Below are positions 1,713 through 54,414 of a DNA stretch of 64,000 nucleotides, in pieces. Position 1 is the first letter of the stretch. The number at the start of each line of letters is the position of its first letter. A program made the position numbers and the translations under genes. The notes below the pieces were generated by a model, which was given only the letters and a program-made list of their open reading frames with translations, did not search any database and was not told where the DNA came from. The stretch covers positions 1-64,000 of IMG/VR virus record IMGVR_UViG_3300035698_034576; one strand, given 5' to 3'. Origin of the DNA: a virus.

Positions 1713-3644
1713 ATGGAAAAACTAGAAGTATTAAAAGCAGCAAACAAAGCCTATCGTGAGGGAGAAGCTATAATGAGCGACAAGGATTATGATGCTCTTG
1801 AAAAAGAAGTCCGAAAAAGCTTCCCTGACCATCCAATATTTAAAACCGGAGTTATTGAAAAACCTACGAAAAGAATGGCAAAACTTCCAAAGCCAATGTT
1901 TTCTCTCGATAAGCTAACTTCAATGGAGGAGATTGAGCAGTGGGCAAAATCAAAAAATTTACCTCTTGACACTATAGTTATCATAACCGGGAAATATGAT
2001 GCAATTTCATTAGTGGTAAAAGAAAGAACCGGAAGTGCTTGGACCAGAGGAGACGGAACAGAGGGTCAGATCAGCGATGGTCACTATTTAAAAACTGGAG
2101 AGAAAAAAAATAATGTTGATTACATTACCGCTGGTGAGCTGATTATGAAGGAGGAATATTTTGTAAACAATGTTGATAAGTTTCAAAAGCAAAATCCTCC
2201 ATATACTAATTCAAGAAATATGGCGGCAGGCTTATTTAATTCAGATGATTCAAATAATCCTGACTTAGTTGGATTCAATTACATGAGGTACACAATTTTT
2301 GATGAAGAAATGGAGAAATTGCACCAGCTTGAAAAGTGTAACAAATTGAATTCAACTCCTGTAGAATACGGAATATTTACTCTTGGAACAGTGCTAAGAG
2401 AGGGAGAAGATCTGCTCAATAAATTATATGAAGAGTGGAACAATCATCCTTTTAAATTAGATGGGCTTGTAATTGATGTAAATAGCGCCCCTAAAAGAAA
2501 ATCTTTAGGAAGAGAAAGAAACAACAATCCAGCCTATGCAAAGGCAATCAAACTAGGATGGGAAGAACAAGTACAAGCAAAGGTGACAGGAGTTGAGTGG
2601 TCAGTTTCAAAAGAGGGCTCTATTATTCCGGTTATCTTAATTCAACCAACGTTTATTTCAGGAGTCACTGTAAGAAGAGCCTCTGGATACAATGCGGCTT
2701 ATGTATTTGCCAACAACATCGCAAAAGATAGTAAAATCACAATCAAAAGATCTGGAGAAGTAATCCCAAAGCATTTAAACACAATAGAGTTTGATGGAAA
2801 AGAGGTATTTGCCATGAAGAAAGAAATAACTCTTTGTCCCTCTTGCAATTCTCAATTAAAATGGTCAAAAAATGATAAAGGGGAATTAGTCGATCTTAAA
2901 TGTAACAACAAAAGAGATTGTAAAGAGCAAACAATTAAAAAACTAGTTCATTTTTTCAAGACAATGAAAATTGATGAATTTGGAGAACCTTCTGTAAGAA
3001 AACTTTATGAAGCTGGATTCCTTACATTTGAAGACATAGTTTCAATGAAAATAGCTGACTTTGATAATATAGATGGATTTGGAGAAAAATCTTCATTAGC
3101 TCTGATCAATGAAATTAAGCTTAAAATTAAAGATGTTAGCTGGGTTAATTTTGGACATGCCATTAGTTGTTTCGACGGGTTAGGAACAAAGAAGCTAATT
3201 CTGTTTAGTGAAATTCTTGATGAGGGATATGGATTAGAAGAGCTGATGTGGATGTTAAGCAATAGCTCTATTGTGACTCCAGCTTTATTATCTATTCCTG
3301 GACTGTCTTTTAAAACTATAGAAGCATTTTTTTCAGGACTTCCGGAGTTAATTTTTCAAATAGAAATGATTAAAGCTAGAGGAGTAAATATTACCTTCCC
3401 CGTAAAAGAAACGCTGAAGCCTAAAGAAGGAGTTTTGAGTGGAAACGTATACGTTTTCACTGGGTTTAGAGACAAGAGCTTAGAAGAGGAAATAATTAAG
3501 CATGGGGGATCAATAGCAACTGGTGTTTCTAGTAAAGTTACACATTTGGTAGTTAAAGACCTAAGTAGTAAATCTTCCAAAGTCATCAAGGCTAAAGAGG
3601 CAGGTATCAAAATACTTTCCAAAGAAGATGTTTTAAATTTTTAG
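1713..3644 (+). CDS. ligA: NAD-dependent DNA ligase
   Basis: MSDxxYD, KYDA adenylation motif, TRGDG, DGLV, KRSGEVIP, Zn finger CPSC, HhH repeats, C-terminal BRCT (VFTG...GG...VS). Confidence 0.95.
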   Translation: MEKLEVLKAANKAYREGEAIMSDKDYDALEKEVRKSFPDHPIFKTGVIEKPTKRMAKLPKPMFSLDKLTSMEEIEQWAKSKNLPLDTIVIITGKYDAISLVVKERTGSAWTRGDGTEGQISDGHYLKTGEKKNNVDYITAGELIMKEEYFVNNVDKFQKQNPPYTNSRNMAAGLFNSDDSNNPDLVGFNYMRYTIFDEEMEKLHQLEKCNKLNSTPVEYGIFTLGTVLREGEDLLNKLYEEWNNHPFKLDGLVIDVNSAPKRKSLGRERNNNPAYAKAIKLGWEEQVQAKVTGVEWSVSKEGSIIPVILIQPTFISGVTVRRASGYNAAYVFANNIAKDSKITIKRSGEVIPKHLNTIEFDGKEVFAMKKEITLCPSCNSQLKWSKNDKGELVDLKCNNKRDCKEQTIKKLVHFFKTMKIDEFGEPSVRKLYEAGFLTFEDIVSMKIADFDNIDGFGEKSSLALINEIKLKIKDVSWVNFGHAISCFDGLGTKKLILFSEILDEGYGLEELMWMLSNSSIVTPALLSIPGLSFKTIEAFFSGLPELIFQIEMIKARGVNITFPVKETLKPKEGVLSGNVYVFTGFRDKSLEEEIIKHGGSIATGVSSKVTHLVVKDLSSKSSKVIKAKEAGIKILSKEDVLNF

Positions 3645-4167: not shown

Positions 4168-4616
4168 TGATAAACTTTCTCCACAAACAAGTTATTTTTG
4201 ATTGCCATTTTATGTCTTTTATAGAGTTTGTTGAATTCTACAAAAAAGAGTATGATTTGGATAAATTAGCTTGCAGTGTAATATGGCATGGCATAAGAGA
4301 ATTTTCTAAATCTTACCAACAGGATCTGGTTAAATCAAATAACATAAAAGAAGAGGGTTTTAAAAAAATAAAGAATCAGATAATTTTGAATTCCCAAACC
4401 ACCTCTTTGGAGGAAAAAGAAGAGGAAGTTTTAGATACTGATAGAAAAGCTATTATAGCCTTAAGTATAGTTGACAAAAAAATAATGAAGAAACAAAAAT
4501 TAGCATTGCTTTTAGAGGAAGGGTTTAGCTTGTTAGAGATTAAAAATATTTTAAATGTATCCCCTGGATACTTAAACCACATGCTTGATGGAATTAAAAA
4601 AGTGGATAAAGTCTAA
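4167..4616 (+). CDS. hypothetical protein, possible C-terminal HTH
   Basis: LLEEGFSLLEIKNILNVSPGYL resembles HTH. Confidence 0.6.
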   Translation: MINFLHKQVIFDCHFMSFIEFVEFYKKEYDLDKLACSVIWHGIREFSKSYQQDLVKSNNIKEEGFKKIKNQIILNSQTTSLEEKEEEVLDTDRKAIIALSIVDKKIMKKQKLALLLEEGFSLLEIKNILNVSPGYLNHMLDGIKKVDKV

Positions 4617-6210
4617 AAGACTATCTGTTGATTTTTTGGAAGGAGAGACAACCTTTACTATACAAGGAGTAGAAGGATGTCTCTATATTATGGAACCTAA
4701 AAAAATACTCATAGGGGAAGATATGCGATTAATCTTTAATGAGAATGAGTTTTTATCTGACAAATGTTCCTTTTATGTTTTTGAGTGGGGAGGCAAATGG
4801 TTTTATGAGCCTAAAGATTACGAAAAAGTATCTTTTACTTTTTTGGAAAATATAGGAAAAGTTTCTTCTTTTTTAGATATAGAGGATTTTCCATTCTTAG
4901 GTTTGCACGGCATGTTTGAAATTTATAATGGCTCCGGATTGTATCAAGACTGGATTGATAAGGCTAAATTTTTAGGATATAAATCATTGGCTTTAGCTGA
5001 AAAAAATACTTTAGCGGGAGTTTTAGAATTTCAATCAGAATGCAACAAGAACAATATAAAAAGCATTATTGGGGAAGAGATATATGTTAAAGAAGGGAGC
5101 AAAACTTATTCAGTAAAGCTATATGTTAAAAATGAAAAAGGTTGGAAGATATTGCTCAGTATTCACAAAATAGTTTTAGTAGATAATCCGAGGCCATTTA
5201 TTGAGGAGCATGTTCTACTTAATCTATTGGATGAAAATATTTTTGTTGTGTTTGACAAAGGGGTTTTGCTTAATAGGAAAATTATTTTTGACTATTCTTT
5301 AAAAGCTGGAAGTGAAAATTTATTCTACCAGTGGGATACTGTCATTTACAAGAATGTCACTAGGGACAATGAGCTACTCCAAACGCAAAAAAATAATCTA
5401 GATTTCTTTAGAAAAGGAATGATAGAGTTTATTCTTATAAACGATGCCTACTATATTAACCAAGAGGATTATGAGATAAAGAAAAAACTTAATGAGATGA
5501 ATCCTAATAGTGAAATAGATGAAGTAGCAACAAACCAGTATTTGAAAGACCTTGATGATAATTACTTTTTAATGGAGAGTTTATTTCCAGAAGGAAAAGA
5601 TGATTTTGATAAGCTGTTCCCATCAATTATTTCTAATGCAAAAAAGATAGCGAAAGAATGTAACTTTCAATACAAAATATCTGAAGCTCGCTTACCCCAA
5701 TTTGAACAAAAGCATTTGCCTATTGAGCTTCAAAAAAAAGATAATAATTCACTTTTTTTATTTTTAATAGAGAAGGGAATTAAAGAGAAGCTTGTTGAAA
5801 GGGATGGGATTAAGGATTTGGATCCTTATTATGAAAGAATAGAGAAAGAAGCAAAAGTAATTCAAGAAGGTGGTTTTGTAGATTATTTTTTAGTTCTTTG
5901 GGATATTGTTAGGTATTCTTTAGCTAATGATATTTTGATAGGGCCAGGCAGGGGCAGCGCTGCTGGGAGCATCATATCACATTTGCTGAACATTACAAAC
6001 ATAGATCCTCTTAAGTATGATTTAATATTTGAGAGGTTTCTTAATGAGGGCAGAATAGGATATGTAGAAAAGGTAGAAATGATTATTGTAGAGACAGAAG
6101 ATGGATGTTTTGAATATAAAAATAATTCAAAAATAGCTATTCAAAGAGATGGAGTTAACAAAACAGTTATTTCCAGTGAATTAAAAGAGGGTGATTTGAT
6201 ACATGATTAG
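4585..6210 (+). CDS. dnaE: DNA polymerase III alpha, N-terminal part (PHP and start of palm)
   Basis: PHP-like region, YFL, GPGRGSAAGS, IDPLKYDLIFERFLN; ends in about 50 aa HINT-like tail. Confidence 0.93.
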   Translation: MMELKKWIKSKRLSVDFLEGETTFTIQGVEGCLYIMEPKKILIGEDMRLIFNENEFLSDKCSFYVFEWGGKWFYEPKDYEKVSFTFLENIGKVSSFLDIEDFPFLGLHGMFEIYNGSGLYQDWIDKAKFLGYKSLALAEKNTLAGVLEFQSECNKNNIKSIIGEEIYVKEGSKTYSVKLYVKNEKGWKILLSIHKIVLVDNPRPFIEEHVLLNLLDENIFVVFDKGVLLNRKIIFDYSLKAGSENLFYQWDTVIYKNVTRDNELLQTQKNNLDFFRKGMIEFILINDAYYINQEDYEIKKKLNEMNPNSEIDEVATNQYLKDLDDNYFLMESLFPEGKDDFDKLFPSIISNAKKIAKECNFQYKISEARLPQFEQKHLPIELQKKDNNSLFLFLIEKGIKEKLVERDGIKDLDPYYERIEKEAKVIQEGGFVDYFLVLWDIVRYSLANDILIGPGRGSAAGSIISHLLNITNIDPLKYDLIFERFLNEGRIGYVEKVEMIIVETEDGCFEYKNNSKIAIQRDGVNKTVISSELKEGDLIHD

Positions 6211-6243
6211 AGATGAACAAATAATTAATATCTAAAAGTTGTT

Positions 6244-6312
6244 ATGAAAATAGTAAAAAAAATTAGAAAAGAGATCAGGGAGTTTACCCACATGGGCGAA
6301 CTCCCTGACTAG
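6244..6312 (+). CDS. dnaE: 22-aa mini-ORF carrying the start of the DnaE catalytic motif
   Basis: MKIVKKIRKEIREFTHMGELPD* (TAG 6310-6312); not in ORF track. Confidence 0.7.
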   Translation: MKIVKKIRKEIREFTHMGELPD

Positions 6313-6313
6313 C

Positions 6314-8302
6314 GATATTGACACAGATATTGCTGGAGAAAAAAGAGGCGAAATAAAGAGATATTTAGAAAGCACCTATGGAGAAGATTATGTCTGCTCA
6401 GTAGGAACTTATGGAACATTTCAATTATCAGCTGGAATTAAAGATTTACTCAGACAAAAAATTCCATTTAAGGCAATGAATAAAGTTGTAAAGACAGCAA
6501 AATTTGAAAGAAATGAACCTATTTCATCTTTATTTGAAAAAGCCCTTAAGAGCCCGGGTTTAAAATCTATTCTTAAAAATAATGTAAAGGAGATAAACCA
6601 GTTAAGAGTAATCCATAAAGGAATTAAAAATGCATCAATACATGCCGCGGCAATGATTATTGTCCCAAAAGAATATGGGGATATATTTTCACAGATGCCA
6701 GTTAAAAAAATGGATGATTTATTAATTTCAGAGTGGGAAGGAGAACCACTTGCTAATGCCGGGTTCTTAAAAGAAGATTTGCTAGGGACAAATCAACTTA
6801 ATAAGTTTGCCAATATTATAAGACTGATAAAAGAAAAAGGAGTAATTGACTTCGATTTTTATAATATCCCATTGGATGATTCAGAAGTTTATCACTTTTA
6901 TAAAAGAGGCTTTACAGCCGATAACTTTCATTTTGGATCAGACCTAATGACAAAGTACACTATTAAGATACAACCAGATAACATAAATGACCTGATAGCA
7001 ATTATGGCCTTGGTTAGGCCTGGGACATTAGAATCTGGAGCTGCAGACAAATATGGCATTTATAAAGACGATCCCTCTAAGGCAAAATTTATGCCCGGCC
7101 TAGAGGGTATAACCAGCAAAACATTTGGCTTTATAGTTTATCAAGAGCAAGTTATGAAGATTTGCCAGGAAATAGGTGGATTTACACTTTCCGAAGCAGA
7201 TTTAATACGTAAGGCTATTGGTAAAAAGAAAATGGATTTACTCCATTCTTTTAAAGAGAAGTTTATTAGTCAAGCTATTTTATTAGGACATGATAAGACG
7301 TTAGTAGAGGATATTTGGGGATTAATGGAGTTACATGGATCATACTCTTTCAATAAGTCCCATAGCGCCGCATACGCTATCACAGGGTACATTTGCAACT
7401 GGTTTAAGGTAAATTATCCTTTAGAATTCTGGATAACAACTTTGCAATATGCAGATAAAGATGATATTCCAAAATTTATATCAGAAATTAATCGTATCAA
7501 TGGTATTGTCAAAATGAAACATGCAGACATAAACTTATCCAAGGATATTTTTTATGCCTCAAAAGATAAGAAAAGTCTTTACTGGTCTTTAGATAGGATA
7601 AGAATGCTTGGAGTTGTTGCTTCAGAGGCTTTGAAAGAAGAAAAAGATTTGGGAGACTTTACATCATTTGATAATTTTTTACATAGGATTAATGAAAATG
7701 ATAGAAAAGTAAACAAAGCCGTAATTGAAAATCTTATATTTTCAGGAGCCTTTGATGAAGTAGAAAATATAGAAAAAATTCAGGATAGACTTTTGTTAAT
7801 TTATAAAATGGCAGAATCTTTAAAAATAAAAGAAGAAGACATAAGTATCAATAAAAAACCATTTCCTCTAAATAAAGAATATTGGTGGCAATTGCAACAA
7901 AGAAGAGTATCTGAATTTTCATACTTTGATTATAAAAAAATAATTGAAGAGGAAGCTCTTGATACTTTTTCTGAAATTGAGACCTATTATAAGAATGGAT
8001 TTGAAATTAAAAAAGGAGGCTTCGCTGAAGAAAAAGTTATAACTGCAGGGATAATAGTGGAAGTGAATCAAAAAGAAAGTACAAAGGCTGGTAATTTTGC
8101 TGTACTAAAGATAGATAATAATTTTGAAGTCTTTTCATTTATTATATGGAATGAGCTTTGGGATAAAGTCAAGAATGATTTAGCAGAGGGATTTTTAATA
8201 GCTTTTTCTGGAAAGGTTCAAAAAGAAAAATATTACGATTATATGAGTGTACAATCATCAAAAAATACAAAAATTAAAATTATTTATAATGGAAAAAATT
8301 AA
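6314..8302 (+). CDS. dnaE: DNA polymerase III alpha, C-terminal part
   Basis: Frame of ORF 6476 extends upstream to DIDTD (6314); HAAA, KEDLLG, RPG, YQEQVM, YSFNKSH, OB fold; no ATG ahead of DIDTD in this frame. Confidence 0.93.
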   Translation, partial: DIDTDIAGEKRGEIKRYLESTYGEDYVCSVGTYGTFQLSAGIKDLLRQKIPFKAMNKVVKTAKFERNEPISSLFEKALKSPGLKSILKNNVKEINQLRVIHKGIKNASIHAAAMIIVPKEYGDIFSQMPVKKMDDLLISEWEGEPLANAGFLKEDLLGTNQLNKFANIIRLIKEKGVIDFDFYNIPLDDSEVYHFYKRGFTADNFHFGSDLMTKYTIKIQPDNINDLIAIMALVRPGTLESGAADKYGIYKDDPSKAKFMPGLEGITSKTFGFIVYQEQVMKICQEIGGFTLSEADLIRKAIGKKKMDLLHSFKEKFISQAILLGHDKTLVEDIWGLMELHGSYSFNKSHSAAYAITGYICNWFKVNYPLEFWITTLQYADKDDIPKFISEINRINGIVKMKHADINLSKDIFYASKDKKSLYWSLDRIRMLGVVASEALKEEKDLGDFTSFDNFLHRINENDRKVNKAVIENLIFSGAFDEVENIEKIQDRLLLIYKMAESLKIKEEDISINKKPFPLNKEYWWQLQQRRVSEFSYFDYKKIIEEEALDTFSEIETYYKNGFEIKKGGFAEEKVITAGIIVEVNQKESTKAGNFAVLKIDNNFEVFSFIIWNELWDKVKNDLAEGFLIAFSGKVQKEKYYDYMSVQSSKNTKIKIIYNGKN

Positions 8303-52308: not shown

Positions 52309-54414
52309 ATGTTTTCAAAAGCAGAAATACAAGCTCTGTTAAATGTAATAAACAAGAATAGTTTGTTCTTTATTGCTTCCCAACTTGGGAAGCATTTGTT
52401 ATTACCGGACGATGTTTCTTTTTTAAAAAAGGAAGGAATAGATCTTTCTAAAATAATCACAAAACATAGTCCGCTAGAACAAGCCTATTTGTTTGGCCAT
52501 ATATCTACTCTTCTGGAAAATGATGTTGTCAAGAAGATGACCTTCAAAGACTTCACTAAATACTTGACTAGTGATAAATGGATGCCTCTTATACAAAAAG
52601 AAAAATATGCTCTCACAGCAGTTGAAAACTTTGCATACTATGAAATTCGTGGACTTGGAACAAGATACAATCAAAGGCTTGGTCATTTAGTTTCTGAAGT
52701 AGATAAAAAAACAAAAGAGGCGAGAGAGTTAAGTGTTAAAAAGACGGCAAAAGAGGCTATTGTAAGAAGGGAGAATAAAAAGTGGCTAGCTTCAGAACTC
52801 AGATCAATAACAGAGGATTGGGGAAGAGATTGGGGAAGAGCTTCTGATTTTATAATGACCACAGCTTACTCAAAGGGTTCTGTTGAAGCTGCAAAAAAGA
52901 GGTCTGGAGAACAAGCAAAGGTTTGGATGTCTGTTTATCCGCAAGCATGTAAGCATTGTATCAAAGCCTATTTAACAGATGGAATAGGATCAAGGCCAAG
53001 AGTTTTTCTTGTAACGGATCTTGAGAGGAATGGGACAAATATCGGAAGAAAGACTGCAGAAGCCTTACCCGTTGTTCCTCCATACCATCCACATTGTTTT
53101 ACAAGTGGTAGGACTCCTGTTATGACAGAAGAGGGCTATAAATTTATAAACAAAATAAAAATAGGGGATTTAGTTTTAACTCATAAAGGAAGATTCAGAA
53201 AAGTTAGTCAATTGCATTTTAATAAAATAAAAAAAATTGAGATAGAAAATAAATATTTCAATATTACTTATAAAATAAAGCAATTTGACAAAACCGATAA
53301 ATTTGTTACTATTTGTAAGATAACTCCGGATCATCCTTTTTTATCAAATAATAAGTGGGTGTCAGCTAAAAAACTGAAGATCAATGATACTTTATCTTTA
53401 TTACAAAGAAAATGTTTTAATCCTAAATGTGAAAACTATACTTCTATATCTTCCAAATTTGAAGAAAATCAATATTGCTCCATAACTTGCGGAAATTCTC
53501 GCTCAGCTAATAAACAATGGGAAAATTACTCAGAGGATAAAAAAGCATCAATATCTAAAAATATCAGTGAAGGAAATTTAAGAAGATATAAATTAACATC
53601 AAAAGAATACAGACAAAAATTAACTGAAAATGGACGTATAGCTCATGAAAAAGTAATGTCTACATGGTCAGATGAAAAGAAAAAAGAAGTTATTCTTAAA
53701 ATAAGAAATTCTAATAAAAAAACATGGTCTTCTTTTACTGATAAAGTAAAAACAAAAAAAGCTTCTAAAGCCAGGAAAAAAAATTCTTCTCATGGTAGAT
53801 CAGGAAATTCTCCATTAGAAATTACTTTTTCAAAAATTTTAAGTAAATTTGATCAGAATTTTACTAATAATTTTAAAATAGAAACAAAGAGAACAAACCC
53901 TAATAATTCAAATCAATCTATTTATAGATGGCTGGATTTTTATGACCCTAGATTAAATATAGTTTTTGAAGTAGACAGTGATTATTGGCACTCTGATAAA
54001 GAAAGAGATAGGATAAGAGATAATGAAATTTTTAATCTGATAGGGGCGGATATATTTCATATAAAAGAAGATGAATTTAAAGATTTAATAAAGTTAGAGG
54101 AGAAGGTTGGAAGATTATTATCTAATCATAATGGAGACTACTCTTTCAAAGATGTTAAAATTGTGGATATAGAAGAAGTTTTCTATAAAGGCAATGGAGA
54201 AGGAATGGTTTACACTTATAATCTTTCAGTGGAAGAAGATGAGAGTTATATTGTAAAAGGGATCGCTGTACATAATTGCCGATGTGATCCAAACTATTTT
54301 CACGACGGATCTGAGTGGGACGAAGAAGAAAAAAGGTTTAAAAAACCTAAATATGTATCAAAATACAAACCATTAGTCAAAGTTACTATTAACGGAAAAG
54401 AATATGAAGGATAA
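52309..54414 (+). CDS. MuF/SPP1 gp7-like head morphogenesis protein with intein
   Basis: ACKHC...PPYHPH|CRC. Confidence 0.85.
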   Translation: MFSKAEIQALLNVINKNSLFFIASQLGKHLLLPDDVSFLKKEGIDLSKIITKHSPLEQAYLFGHISTLLENDVVKKMTFKDFTKYLTSDKWMPLIQKEKYALTAVENFAYYEIRGLGTRYNQRLGHLVSEVDKKTKEARELSVKKTAKEAIVRRENKKWLASELRSITEDWGRDWGRASDFIMTTAYSKGSVEAAKKRSGEQAKVWMSVYPQACKHCIKAYLTDGIGSRPRVFLVTDLERNGTNIGRKTAEALPVVPPYHPHCFTSGRTPVMTEEGYKFINKIKIGDLVLTHKGRFRKVSQLHFNKIKKIEIENKYFNITYKIKQFDKTDKFVTICKITPDHPFLSNNKWVSAKKLKINDTLSLLQRKCFNPKCENYTSISSKFEENQYCSITCGNSRSANKQWENYSEDKKASISKNISEGNLRRYKLTSKEYRQKLTENGRIAHEKVMSTWSDEKKKEVILKIRNSNKKTWSSFTDKVKTKKASKARKKNSSHGRSGNSPLEITFSKILSKFDQNFTNNFKIETKRTNPNNSNQSIYRWLDFYDPRLNIVFEVDSDYWHSDKERDRIRDNEIFNLIGADIFHIKEDEFKDLIKLEEKVGRLLSNHNGDYSFKDVKIVDIEEVFYKGNGEGMVYTYNLSVEEDESYIVKGIAVHNCRCDPNYFHDGSEWDEEEKRFKKPKYVSKYKPLVKVTINGKEYEG
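53095..54276 (+). mobile_element. intein (394 aa) with DUF559/Vsr-like endonuclease
   Basis: HPH|CFTS...TPDHPF...LDFY...EVDSDYWH...YNLSVEEDESY...VHN|CRC. Confidence 0.92.

Follow-up and report, generated by a model that had tools for sequence, protein, structure and literature searches.

We analyzed a stretch of viral DNA, the window, which comprises the first 64 kb of the 83-kb IMG/VR contig IMGVR_UViG_3300035698_034576. Between positions 4585 and 8302 the window carries a gene for a DnaE-type (Pol III alpha) polymerase, which is laid out in three reading pieces. The catalytic motif of this polymerase is interrupted by a 7-nucleotide (nt) gap consisting of a stop codon, one further base, and a repeated Asp codon. 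The comparisons presented here make it probable that the gap is crossed by a programmed translational bypass, that is, a short ribosomal hop in a two-piece phage dnaE.

Re-reading of the sequence showed that the second reading piece, here called the leader of the C-terminal half (C-half), runs exactly as given in a preliminary description of this DNA: from ATG 6244 to ...GELPD, followed by TAG 6310. The leader is in the same frame as the N-terminal half (N-half), frame 1. The third piece is in frame 2 (+1), which is open from 6254. From GAT 6314 (GAT ATT GAC ACA GAT, encoding DIDTD) this frame reads DIDTDIAGEKRGEIK... for 662 codons and stops at 8300-8302. It had been described as lacking an upstream ATG; indeed, neither ATG nor GTG nor TTG occurs in it before 6476. 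The Pfam family PF07733 is divided between the halves, with model positions 7-99 ending at 6057 and positions 102/103-260 resuming at 6311/6314. Skipping positions 6310-6316 yields ELPDIDTDIAGEK, and the motif ELPDIDTD is rebuilt, as had been claimed. The closest relative, P0121, encodes the motif contiguously and reads ...GGELPDIDTDIAGERRGEIK, uninterrupted. Because P0121 is contiguous at the Asp-Ile of LPDIDTD, the window has exactly 7 nt extra. The C-half body is similar to P0121 over its full length (60% identity by BLASTP; 65% over 516 tree columns).

The gap exists in the DNA itself: two salt-lake metagenome runs have Logan contigs that span the site with 0 differences and 0 alignment gaps (X1, record 6, covering 6203-6400; X2, record 10, covering 6176-6599). 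Runs X3 and X4 do not reach the site. X1 and X2 come from different studies (2019 and 2017, respectively), X1 being possibly the source sample of the contig. Since two runs of different studies carry the gap unchanged, an assembly artefact of the IMG/VR contig is excluded.

In the proposed hop, the ribosome would translate the 22-codon leader of the C-half and stall when peptidyl-tRNA(Asp) occupies GAC 6307-6309 and TAG has entered the A site. The tRNA would unpair, the mRNA would slide by 7 nt, and the same tRNA would re-pair with GAT 6314-6316. Decoding would resume at ATT 6317 and give ...GELPDIDTDIAGEK..., with the catalytic motif intact. The predicted junction peptide of the hop product is ...EFTHMGELPDIDTDIAGEK.

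Gaps of 7, 8, or 9 nt were detected at the same motif in nine further lineages (ten with the window). Some were found by scanning IMG/VR and JGI metagenomes with the pattern P-D-TAR-N-[GT]AY-I-D-x-D. Two of the four IMG/VR matches represent one jumbo-phage lineage from two datasets (L088/L090), which reads ...VPD TAG T GAC ATT GAT (GAC TAG T GAC, 7 nt). Four of the 44 JGI matches are dnaE C-halves, with GAC TAA G GAC in L095 and L130 and GAC TAA G TAC in L097 and L105; no DnaE follows downstream of the remaining 40, which are chance matches. The remaining four lineages (the L136 group, L146/L150, L152/L153, and L159) were retrieved by protein similarity, with neither a stop nor a repeated codon demanded. 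The L136 group consists of 12 contigs from four datasets (L136-145, 147, and 148). These make up 12 of the 18 IMG/VR relatives of P0209 and read CCA GAC TAA GG GAC ATC GAT, an 8-nt gap leading into the other frame. L146 and L150 carry GAT CTC TGA GAC CTC GAT (9 nt, in frame), L152 and L153 carry GAT ATC TAA G ATC GAT, and L159, a GenBank human-gut scaffold, carries CTC CCG TAA G GCG GAT ATA. Also among the 18 relatives, L149 is gap-less, and the junction is not seen in L151.

A stop codon (TAA, TAG, or TGA) stands directly after the take-off codon in all ten lineages, and in all ten a skip to just past the repeated or nearly repeated codon restores LPD(I/L)DxD. The take-off codons are CCG, GAC, ATC, and CTC (Pro, Asp, Ile, and Leu). 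The landing codon varies in step with them and equals the take-off codon, exactly or synonymously, in 7 of the 10 lineages. Where protein similarity was the means of retrieval, the stop follows take-off in 4 of 4 lineages, and the landing codon is identical in three and shares two of three bases in one. Thus, as regards conservation of the insert in related phage dnaE genes, a point raised in the preliminary description, a gap of the same type exists in nine other lineages and is absent from P0121. The hop from GAC 6307 to GAT 6314 suggested there is the only single reading that restores LPD(I/L)DxD in the window and in the nine lineages, and we consider it likely to be correct. With gaps of 7, 8, and 9 nt, +1 frameshifting, -1/+2 frameshifting, and readthrough, and therefore three mechanisms, would be needed instead of one hop. 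Frameshifting or readthrough would also lengthen by one to three residues a motif that has no interruption in 67 of 67 gap-less loci, and would place Tyr (L097 and L105) or Gly (L144) at the position of the catalytic Asp.

The gap lineages showed several additional features. In L144 (3972-3990), 1 of the 12 near-identical contigs, GGC replaces GAC at the landing site. This codon would be lethal if decoded as the catalytic Asp but tolerable if it is a landing pad only; a sequencing error is also possible. TAAG follows different take-off codons (GAC, ATC, and CCG) in 6 of 10 lineages (L095, L130, L097, L105, L152, and L159), perhaps because the cassettes share an origin or because this stop context is favored. 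The preference for GAC over GAT at take-off was considered as evidence and not used: GAC is found in 7 of 7 Asp-type lineages, yet also in 39 of 67 gap-less loci, and is thus only weakly unusual.

Public gene calls for C-halves include odd N-termini in the shifted frame (MAALSLTKDIDTD, MLVRSLTKYIDND, and MAVLCPTKYIDID), which the start of frame 2 in the window resembles (..ANSLTSDIDTD). The gaps of P0238, P0217, P0186, and P0219 were inferred from such odd N-termini only. The start MARRPEVKRY was traced to the lineage with the 8-nt gap. Other C-half calls (P0150, P0163, P0123, and P0198/P0203/P0204/P0240) have odd starts (MVRFRELDIDLD and MRSDIDTD) or start just past the motif, and some of the oddly started public calls may hide further gap types. 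A blastn search with the window gene against GenBank phages gave no match, and neither did blastn of the L136 junction. For P0238, P0217, and P0235, IMG/VR relatives were gap-less, distant, or none.

A hairpin that extends to the take-off codon or stops no more than 2 nt short of it was detected in 10 of 10 gap lineages and was absent in 64 gap-less loci, and it was never a search criterion. In the window, its minimum free energy (MFE) is -24.7 kcal/mol (z = -6.41; 0 of 200 shuffles were as stable), and its 3' arm covers bases 1 and 2 of the take-off codon. In eight other lineages the stem is perfect, measures 11-17 bp, encloses a 6-nt loop, and keeps the same codon register; its end lies anywhere from 3 nt ahead of the take-off codon (L136) to 2 nt inside it. 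The stem of L088/L090 is shorter (7 bp) and located 2 nt upstream of the take-off codon. Over the 48 nt up to and including the Asp codon, gap genes had MFE values of -12.9 to -26.4 kcal/mol (mean, -21.4; 10 sequences), whereas 64 distinct gap-less relatives had a mean of -7.7 and a most stable value of -18.4 (Mann-Whitney p = 3e-7). The split, gap-less genes of the cultured phages phi13:1 and Larrie gave -8.0 and -3.2. When 9 sequences were aligned without gaps, 92.9% of the cells were paired, and 7 of the 14 pairs were substituted on both sides, as at the Pro codon (CCC/GGG, CCT/AGG, and CCG/CGG). None of 500 shuffles reached the observed values, and slid registers paired to 31-53%.

From these data we infer that the hairpin stimulates the hop. 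When the arms are placed according to the size of the ribosome footprint, the 3' arm (6298-6308) would be inside the ribosome at take-off, and the 5' arm would have already emerged. With the two arms so placed, the hairpin would refold behind the stalled ribosome and thereby advance the mRNA by roughly one gap length. Pairing of mRNA behind the ribosome was proposed for gene 60 of phage T4 (Wills et al. 2024 preprint; figure legend in PMC5009743).

Several points weigh against the programmed hop and its stimulation by the hairpin. For all these genes, the hop is a prediction from sequence. The stop and the landing codon were imposed by the search pattern in 6 of the 10 lineages, including the window, and only two of three landing bases match in L097, L105, and L159. 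The structure scored for covariation was derived from the same 9 sequences, and the p-values overstate the support, because related sequences are not independent samples. The driving role of the hairpin is our inference rather than a precedent, since clades of the gene 60 family do not share the 5' stem-loop (Manning and Atkins 2022 preprint). With a leader of only 22 codons, a nascent-peptide signal of the gene 60 type cannot operate as it does there. Finally, the depth of both confirming Logan contigs is low (2.9 and 3.2).

An ordinary +1 frameshift at GAC-TAG, a shifty stop as in prfB, would lead to ...LPD-S-DIDTD... with the second Asp-x-Asp as the catalytic pair. It would be compatible with the length of the gap, which equals +1, with the stop in the A site, and with the +1 frame being open from well before the gap. 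UAG followed by C is a weak termination context, and this context is present at the gap. Nevertheless, we regard this explanation as very improbable: GAC-T offers tRNA(Asp) no +1 re-pairing, relatives have 8-nt and in-frame 9-nt gaps, the codon decoded at the catalytic position would be TAC in L097 and L105 and GGC in L144, and a two-residue insert would be required where all 67 gap-less loci have none. The site does not have the properties of prfB-type +1 frameshifting. We give similarly little credence to the view that the C-half is dead or dispensable, the 7 nt being a scar (a mutation or the footprint of a mobile element) in a decaying gene or a variant of defective genomes. A stop with a frameshift has the look of a pseudogene, and the contig is a metagenome assembly with an estimated completeness of 75%. 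However, the 662 downstream codons are intact with all polymerase domains present, and the 83-kb record contains no second PF07733 gene. Moreover, the break persists in the 2017 and 2019 runs and in the 12 near-identical contigs of the L136 group from four datasets, and scars would not repeat a stop and a matched codon behind a covarying hairpin in ten lineages.

The polymerase could alternatively consist of three pieces, with a leader peptide released at TAG and a body produced by termination-reinitiation at a non-canonical start (ATT 6317 or CTG 6305). The enzyme already works as separate polypeptides, and in Asp-type gaps the landing codon is followed by ATT or ATC. Such an arrangement is highly improbable, since it would part the first catalytic Asp from the second and leave the matched codons and the hairpin unexplained. 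In addition, reinitiation is unlikely because, where decoding would resume, three lineages (L146/L150, L152, and L159) have GAT or GAC and no start-like codon. Extremely improbable is the removal or skipping of the 7 nt at the RNA level, by a micro-intron or by a jump of RNA polymerase after the hairpin, which would result in a contiguous mRNA. It would fit the strong hairpin immediately 5' of the gap, but it needs neither an in-frame stop after take-off nor a repeated triplet of codon length at landing. The RNA:DNA hybrid comprises 9 bp, and three matching bases cannot re-anchor it. Rfam gave six weak matches in 5800-6600, all far below gathering scores, and no intron or ribozyme; in particular, no group I or group II intron matched in this region at E <= 10.

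Two other candidates were rejected. A group I intron between ERFLNEGR and DIDTD (U/G boundary 6065/6312) is at odds with LPD being homologous coding sequence in frame 1, with the protein-coding nature of the insert in relatives, and with the blank Rfam result. Reassignment of a stop codon is at odds with the presence of TAG, TGA, and TAA within 27 nt after the N-half, with the use of all three at the ends of long open reading frames (ORFs), and with the absence of a suppressor tRNA from the window. The stops of 39 long ORFs are TAA (29), TAG (8), and TGA (2), and no tRNA gene was found within the window. The phage uses the standard genetic code.

A second hop had been considered at the end of the N-half, where GAT-TAG-A-GAT is found at 6205-6214. 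The pattern is present but is not above chance. GAYTAGNGAT occurs 3 times in the window versus 1.21 times expected, and 13 of 100 shuffles reach 3; a synonymous codon follows 7-9 nt after the last sense codon at 4 of 39 long ORF ends. There is no hairpin (MFE -1.6 versus -23.5 at the gap site), and the +1 frame past the site would add only EQIINI before TAA. On the grounds of pattern count, ORF-end frequency, and lack of a hairpin, this second site was rejected as probably due to chance. The third match, at 52566, lies inside an ORF and out of frame and was also rejected.

The split of the gene, which is an old one, was analyzed by comparison with its relatives. Unsplit relatives (about 1160-1190 amino acids) read ERFLNEGRIGKSLPDIDTDF uninterrupted. 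A subset of relatives (P0020, P0054, L010, and others) has an in-frame insert of 45-55 residues between ERFLNxxR and LPD, and many other relatives are split inside this insert. The split C-halves, for example those of P0121 (MINVKKIEIETRIIFEGGELPDIDTDIAGERRGEIK), P0235, P0227, P0231, and P0192, begin with M-[IK]-V-K-x-I..., approximately 20 residues before G-[SE]-L-P-D-I-D-T-D. The leaders of P0121, P0235, P0227, P0231, P0192/L003, L154, and L157 run straight into DIDTD, and leaders are alike in gap-bearing and gap-less genes. In the window, the 250 nt inserted between ERFLNEGR and LPD encode protein and are homologous to the in-frame inserts of the relatives.

A split intein was tried as an explanation and rejected. 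The insert starts ...GR/IGYVEK and ends ...FTHM/GELPD, with no Cys or Ser at its start and no terminal His-Asn followed by Cys, Ser, or Thr. No intein or Hint family matched in Pfam at E <= 0.001. Because the tails are devoid of intein catalytic residues and because of the missing Pfam match, the dnaE of the window is, judging by its sequence, a gene in pieces of the MobA/MobE kind and not a split intein. The tails on both halves (IGYVEKVEMIIVETEDGCFEY...LKEGDLIHD and MKIVKKIRKEIREF...) span 6058-6300 and resemble the outer strands of a beta module of HINT or SH3-like type that lacks splicing residues. Unsplit relatives (P0020, P0054, and L010) contain this module in frame, and it may hold the two dnaE halves together. 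In L151 (3851-4000), an intein-like end (...GYLVHN/C) was noticed just upstream of the match; inteins are thus present elsewhere in the same gene.

In many relatives, other genes lie between the two halves: an HNH/endonuclease VII-like gene in L003, a 'homing endonuclease' PHROG in L130, GIY-YIG-like ORFs in L136 and L146 and HNH-like ORFs in L159 (both judged by motif only), and other ORFs in L095 and L097. A nuclease together with a gap is present in L095, L130, L136, L146, and L159. The window, L150, and L152 have the gap only, L003 has the nuclease only, and L149, L154, and L157 have neither. L146 and L150 are about 95% identical, and the nuclease gene of roughly 0.9 kb is the difference between them. 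L150 and L149 are about 85% identical throughout, and no local conversion tract was seen around the gap. A quick IQ-TREE tree was calculated from 42 C-half rows (10 with a DNA-verified gap, 4 with an inferred gap, and 28 gap-less). On this tree the gap state changes 10 times, with at least 8 changes forced by well-supported branches, and its clustering does not exceed that of shuffled labels, 77 of 500 shuffles being as low. The sisters of the window are P0121 (split and gap-less) and then P0122 (unsplit). Such a patchy distribution is expected of a mobile cassette.

In phage T4, the 50-nt bypass of gene 60 lies within the MobA homing-endonuclease element (Manning and Atkins 2022 preprint; Bonocora 2011 as cited there). 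This element shows a decay series, and its bypass insert guards the DNA against the element's own nuclease (Manning and Atkins 2022 preprint). The combinations of nuclease and gap in dnaE mirror that series. By analogy, the dnaE gaps may serve the same protective purpose, as the gap disrupts the conserved PDIDTD-coding DNA, a possible target of such a nuclease. The split, the tails on both halves, and the gap would then be remnants of a homing-endonuclease element, the nuclease gene of which would have been lost in the window phage. We tentatively propose a minimal, hairpin-powered bypass cassette, although doubt about it slightly outweighs confidence. A hairpin of 7-17 bp, formed by codons just upstream (..GSLP..), would re-zip in the wake of a ribosome halted at a stop codon and drag the mRNA forward by 7-9 nt, so that the peptidyl-tRNA lands on a repeated codon. 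The cassette would travel with homing endonucleases of various kinds (GIY-YIG, HNH, and others), which split dnaE in jumbo phages and in phages with Bacteroidota-infecting cultured relatives, and it would shield the PDIDTD-coding DNA from cleavage.

The similarity to T4 gene 60 and MobA extends to the overall architecture. In both systems, an essential gene of DNA metabolism is split, tails are added, and an endonuclease gene lies between the halves (in many of the dnaE relatives), and both include forms with the gap that lost the nuclease and forms without both. In both, the downstream half carries the gap near its start and within a conserved metal-binding motif, with a stop directly after take-off and matching take-off and landing codons; Asp GAY is also used in some gene 60 clades. 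In contrast to gene 60, the host gene is dnaE and not a topoisomerase gene, the gap measures 7-9 nt (gene 60: 50 nt, or 20 nt in one clade), and the leader 22 codons (gene 60: 46). At 7-9 nt, the dnaE gap is too short to accommodate a take-off stem-loop or an internal Shine-Dalgarno sequence. Its 5' hairpin is conserved and covarying, unlike the gene 60 5' stem-loop, which is not conserved between clades, and its take-off position shifts over four adjacent codons. The hallmarks of homology to the T4 cassette (Topo2L site, 50-nt gap, take-off stem-loop, mini-Shine-Dalgarno, and KKYK signal) are not shared by dnaE. The dnaE gap works like the gene 60 cassette but is no homologue of it. Neither 'polymerase' nor 'DnaE' occurs in the text of the Manning and Atkins preprint.

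Short gaps are also known from terminase genes. In Streptomyces phage Hau3, a 10-nt insert (7 nt in a prophage of S. catenulae) is bypassed after a UUA codon; mass spectrometry of a UAA variant in E. coli demonstrated a bypass and not a +1 shift, and inserts of this type were present in 3 of 100 terminase genes (PMC10732093). Like the dnaE gap, this is a natural gap of 7-10 nt in an essential phage gene, with a slow A-site codon, a landing codon, and RNA structure nearby. The trigger in Hau3 is a rare sense codon tied to the host life cycle and thus regulatory, whereas in dnaE it is a true stop. Furthermore, the dnaE gap lies behind a hairpin in a split gene, while neither a split gene nor an endonuclease is described for Hau3 in the accessible text. 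Synthetic 'stop-hops' in E. coli, which are artificial and of low efficiency (Weiss et al. 1987, via PMC5009743), share with the dnaE hop its independence of frame. According to the Atkins 2016 review (PMC5009743), natural short-distance hops were long presumed and hardly found, and no natural in-frame stop-hop is known. If true, L146/L150 (CTC TGA GAC CTC, in frame) would be the first.

The 'fractured genes' combine a split intein with a free-standing homing endonuclease, and three DnaE loci are among them (Dassa et al. 2009, PMC2677866). They have in common with the genes studied here a phage-type dnaE in two parts, an endonuclease gene between the halves (in relatives of the window gene), and beta-rich tails on both. 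The dnaE tails described here differ in having no intein catalytic residues, and the accessible text of PMC2677866 describes no coding gap. Among cultured viruses, the Cbastvirus phages Cellulophaga phage phi13:1 (gp038/gp039) and Tenacibaculum phage Larrie have a split dnaE annotated as two 'DNA polymerase III alpha subunit' genes. They share the split point, the tail type, and the leader (MKIINIEQNTAPKLVNGTLPDIDTD) with the window, but have no gap and no hairpin. Because these phages have the same two-gene dnaE, the host of the window phage is probably a member of Bacteroidota. No report of bypassing in dnaE was found in a full-text literature search, supplementary files being outside its reach.

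Efficient translational bypassing is rare enough that few cases are known: gene 60 of T4 with its homologues, all in one topoisomerase gene; the byps of yeast mitochondria; and, as a candidate, the terminases of Streptomyces phages. If true, the family of 7-9 nt hops would be a compact system for testing ribosome release and landing, and it would offer natural variation in the form of four take-off codons, three stop codons, three gap lengths, and a covarying hairpin. The dnaE cassette would then be a second element of the T4 gene 60/MobA sort, much simpler and of independent origin, and the link of homing endonucleases, split genes, and recoding would reach beyond T4. For annotation, it is relevant that gene callers truncate or mis-start such polymerases, as in the 608-aa call in the window and in the N-termini MAVLCPTKYIDID... 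and MARRPEVKRY... in public protein sets.

The features of the split gene are listed in Table 1. The window has a G+C content of 30-36%, and nearly all of its genes are on the + strand. The N-half starts at TTG 4585 or ATG 4588 and ends with ...LKEGDLIHD and TAG 6208-6210 in frame 1.

Table 1. Coordinates of the split dnaE gene and its coding gap in the window
Feature	Position	Strand	Basis
dnaE N-half (PHP and first palm part)	4585..6210	+	ORF list, translation; Pfam PHP and PF07733 positions 7-99
C-terminal extension of N-half, 50 residues after ERFLNEGRI	6058..6207	+	Pfam match ends 6057; homologous tails in L003, L095, L097, L154, L157
Spacer between halves, 33 nt, without gene	6211..6243	+	ORF list
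C-half leader, 22 codons, MKIVKKIRKEIREFTHMGELPD	6244..6309	+	Translation; homologous leaders in relatives
5' hairpin, 11-bp stem (6275-6285 / 6298-6308) and inner 3-bp stem	6275..6308	+	Folding, covariation
Putative take-off codon GAC (Asp, first catalytic aspartate of PDxD)	6307..6309	+	Motif alignment with relatives
7-nt coding gap: TAG 6310-6312, C 6313, putative landing codon GAT 6314-6316	6310..6316	+	Absent in P0121; present in two runs
C-half body from ATT 6317 (IDTDIAGEKRGEIK...): rest of palm, fingers, HhH	6317..8302	+	Pfam PF07733 103-260, PF17657, PF14579

Other arrangements of the gene were also observed. In the jumbo-phage lineage (L090, 1-2910), the dnaE region is in more than three pieces. 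Its N part ends at 996 and is followed by small ORFs at 1015-1410, 1412-1807, and 1797-2318 (minus strand), for which no Pfam or PHROG match was found. A separate ORF at 2269-2664 repeats a palm fragment together with the start of the insert module and precedes the gap-bearing leader. In the gut-phage lineages L149, L150 (3980-6478), and L152 (3923-6793), the C-halves are 170-290 residues longer than that of the window. The cultured Bacteroides phage BS-TP1 (L158; PQ571274.1, 1-1600) is gap-less and has a helicase-like gene between the halves. Its C-half dnaE is unannotated, and its linear record begins inside the gene.

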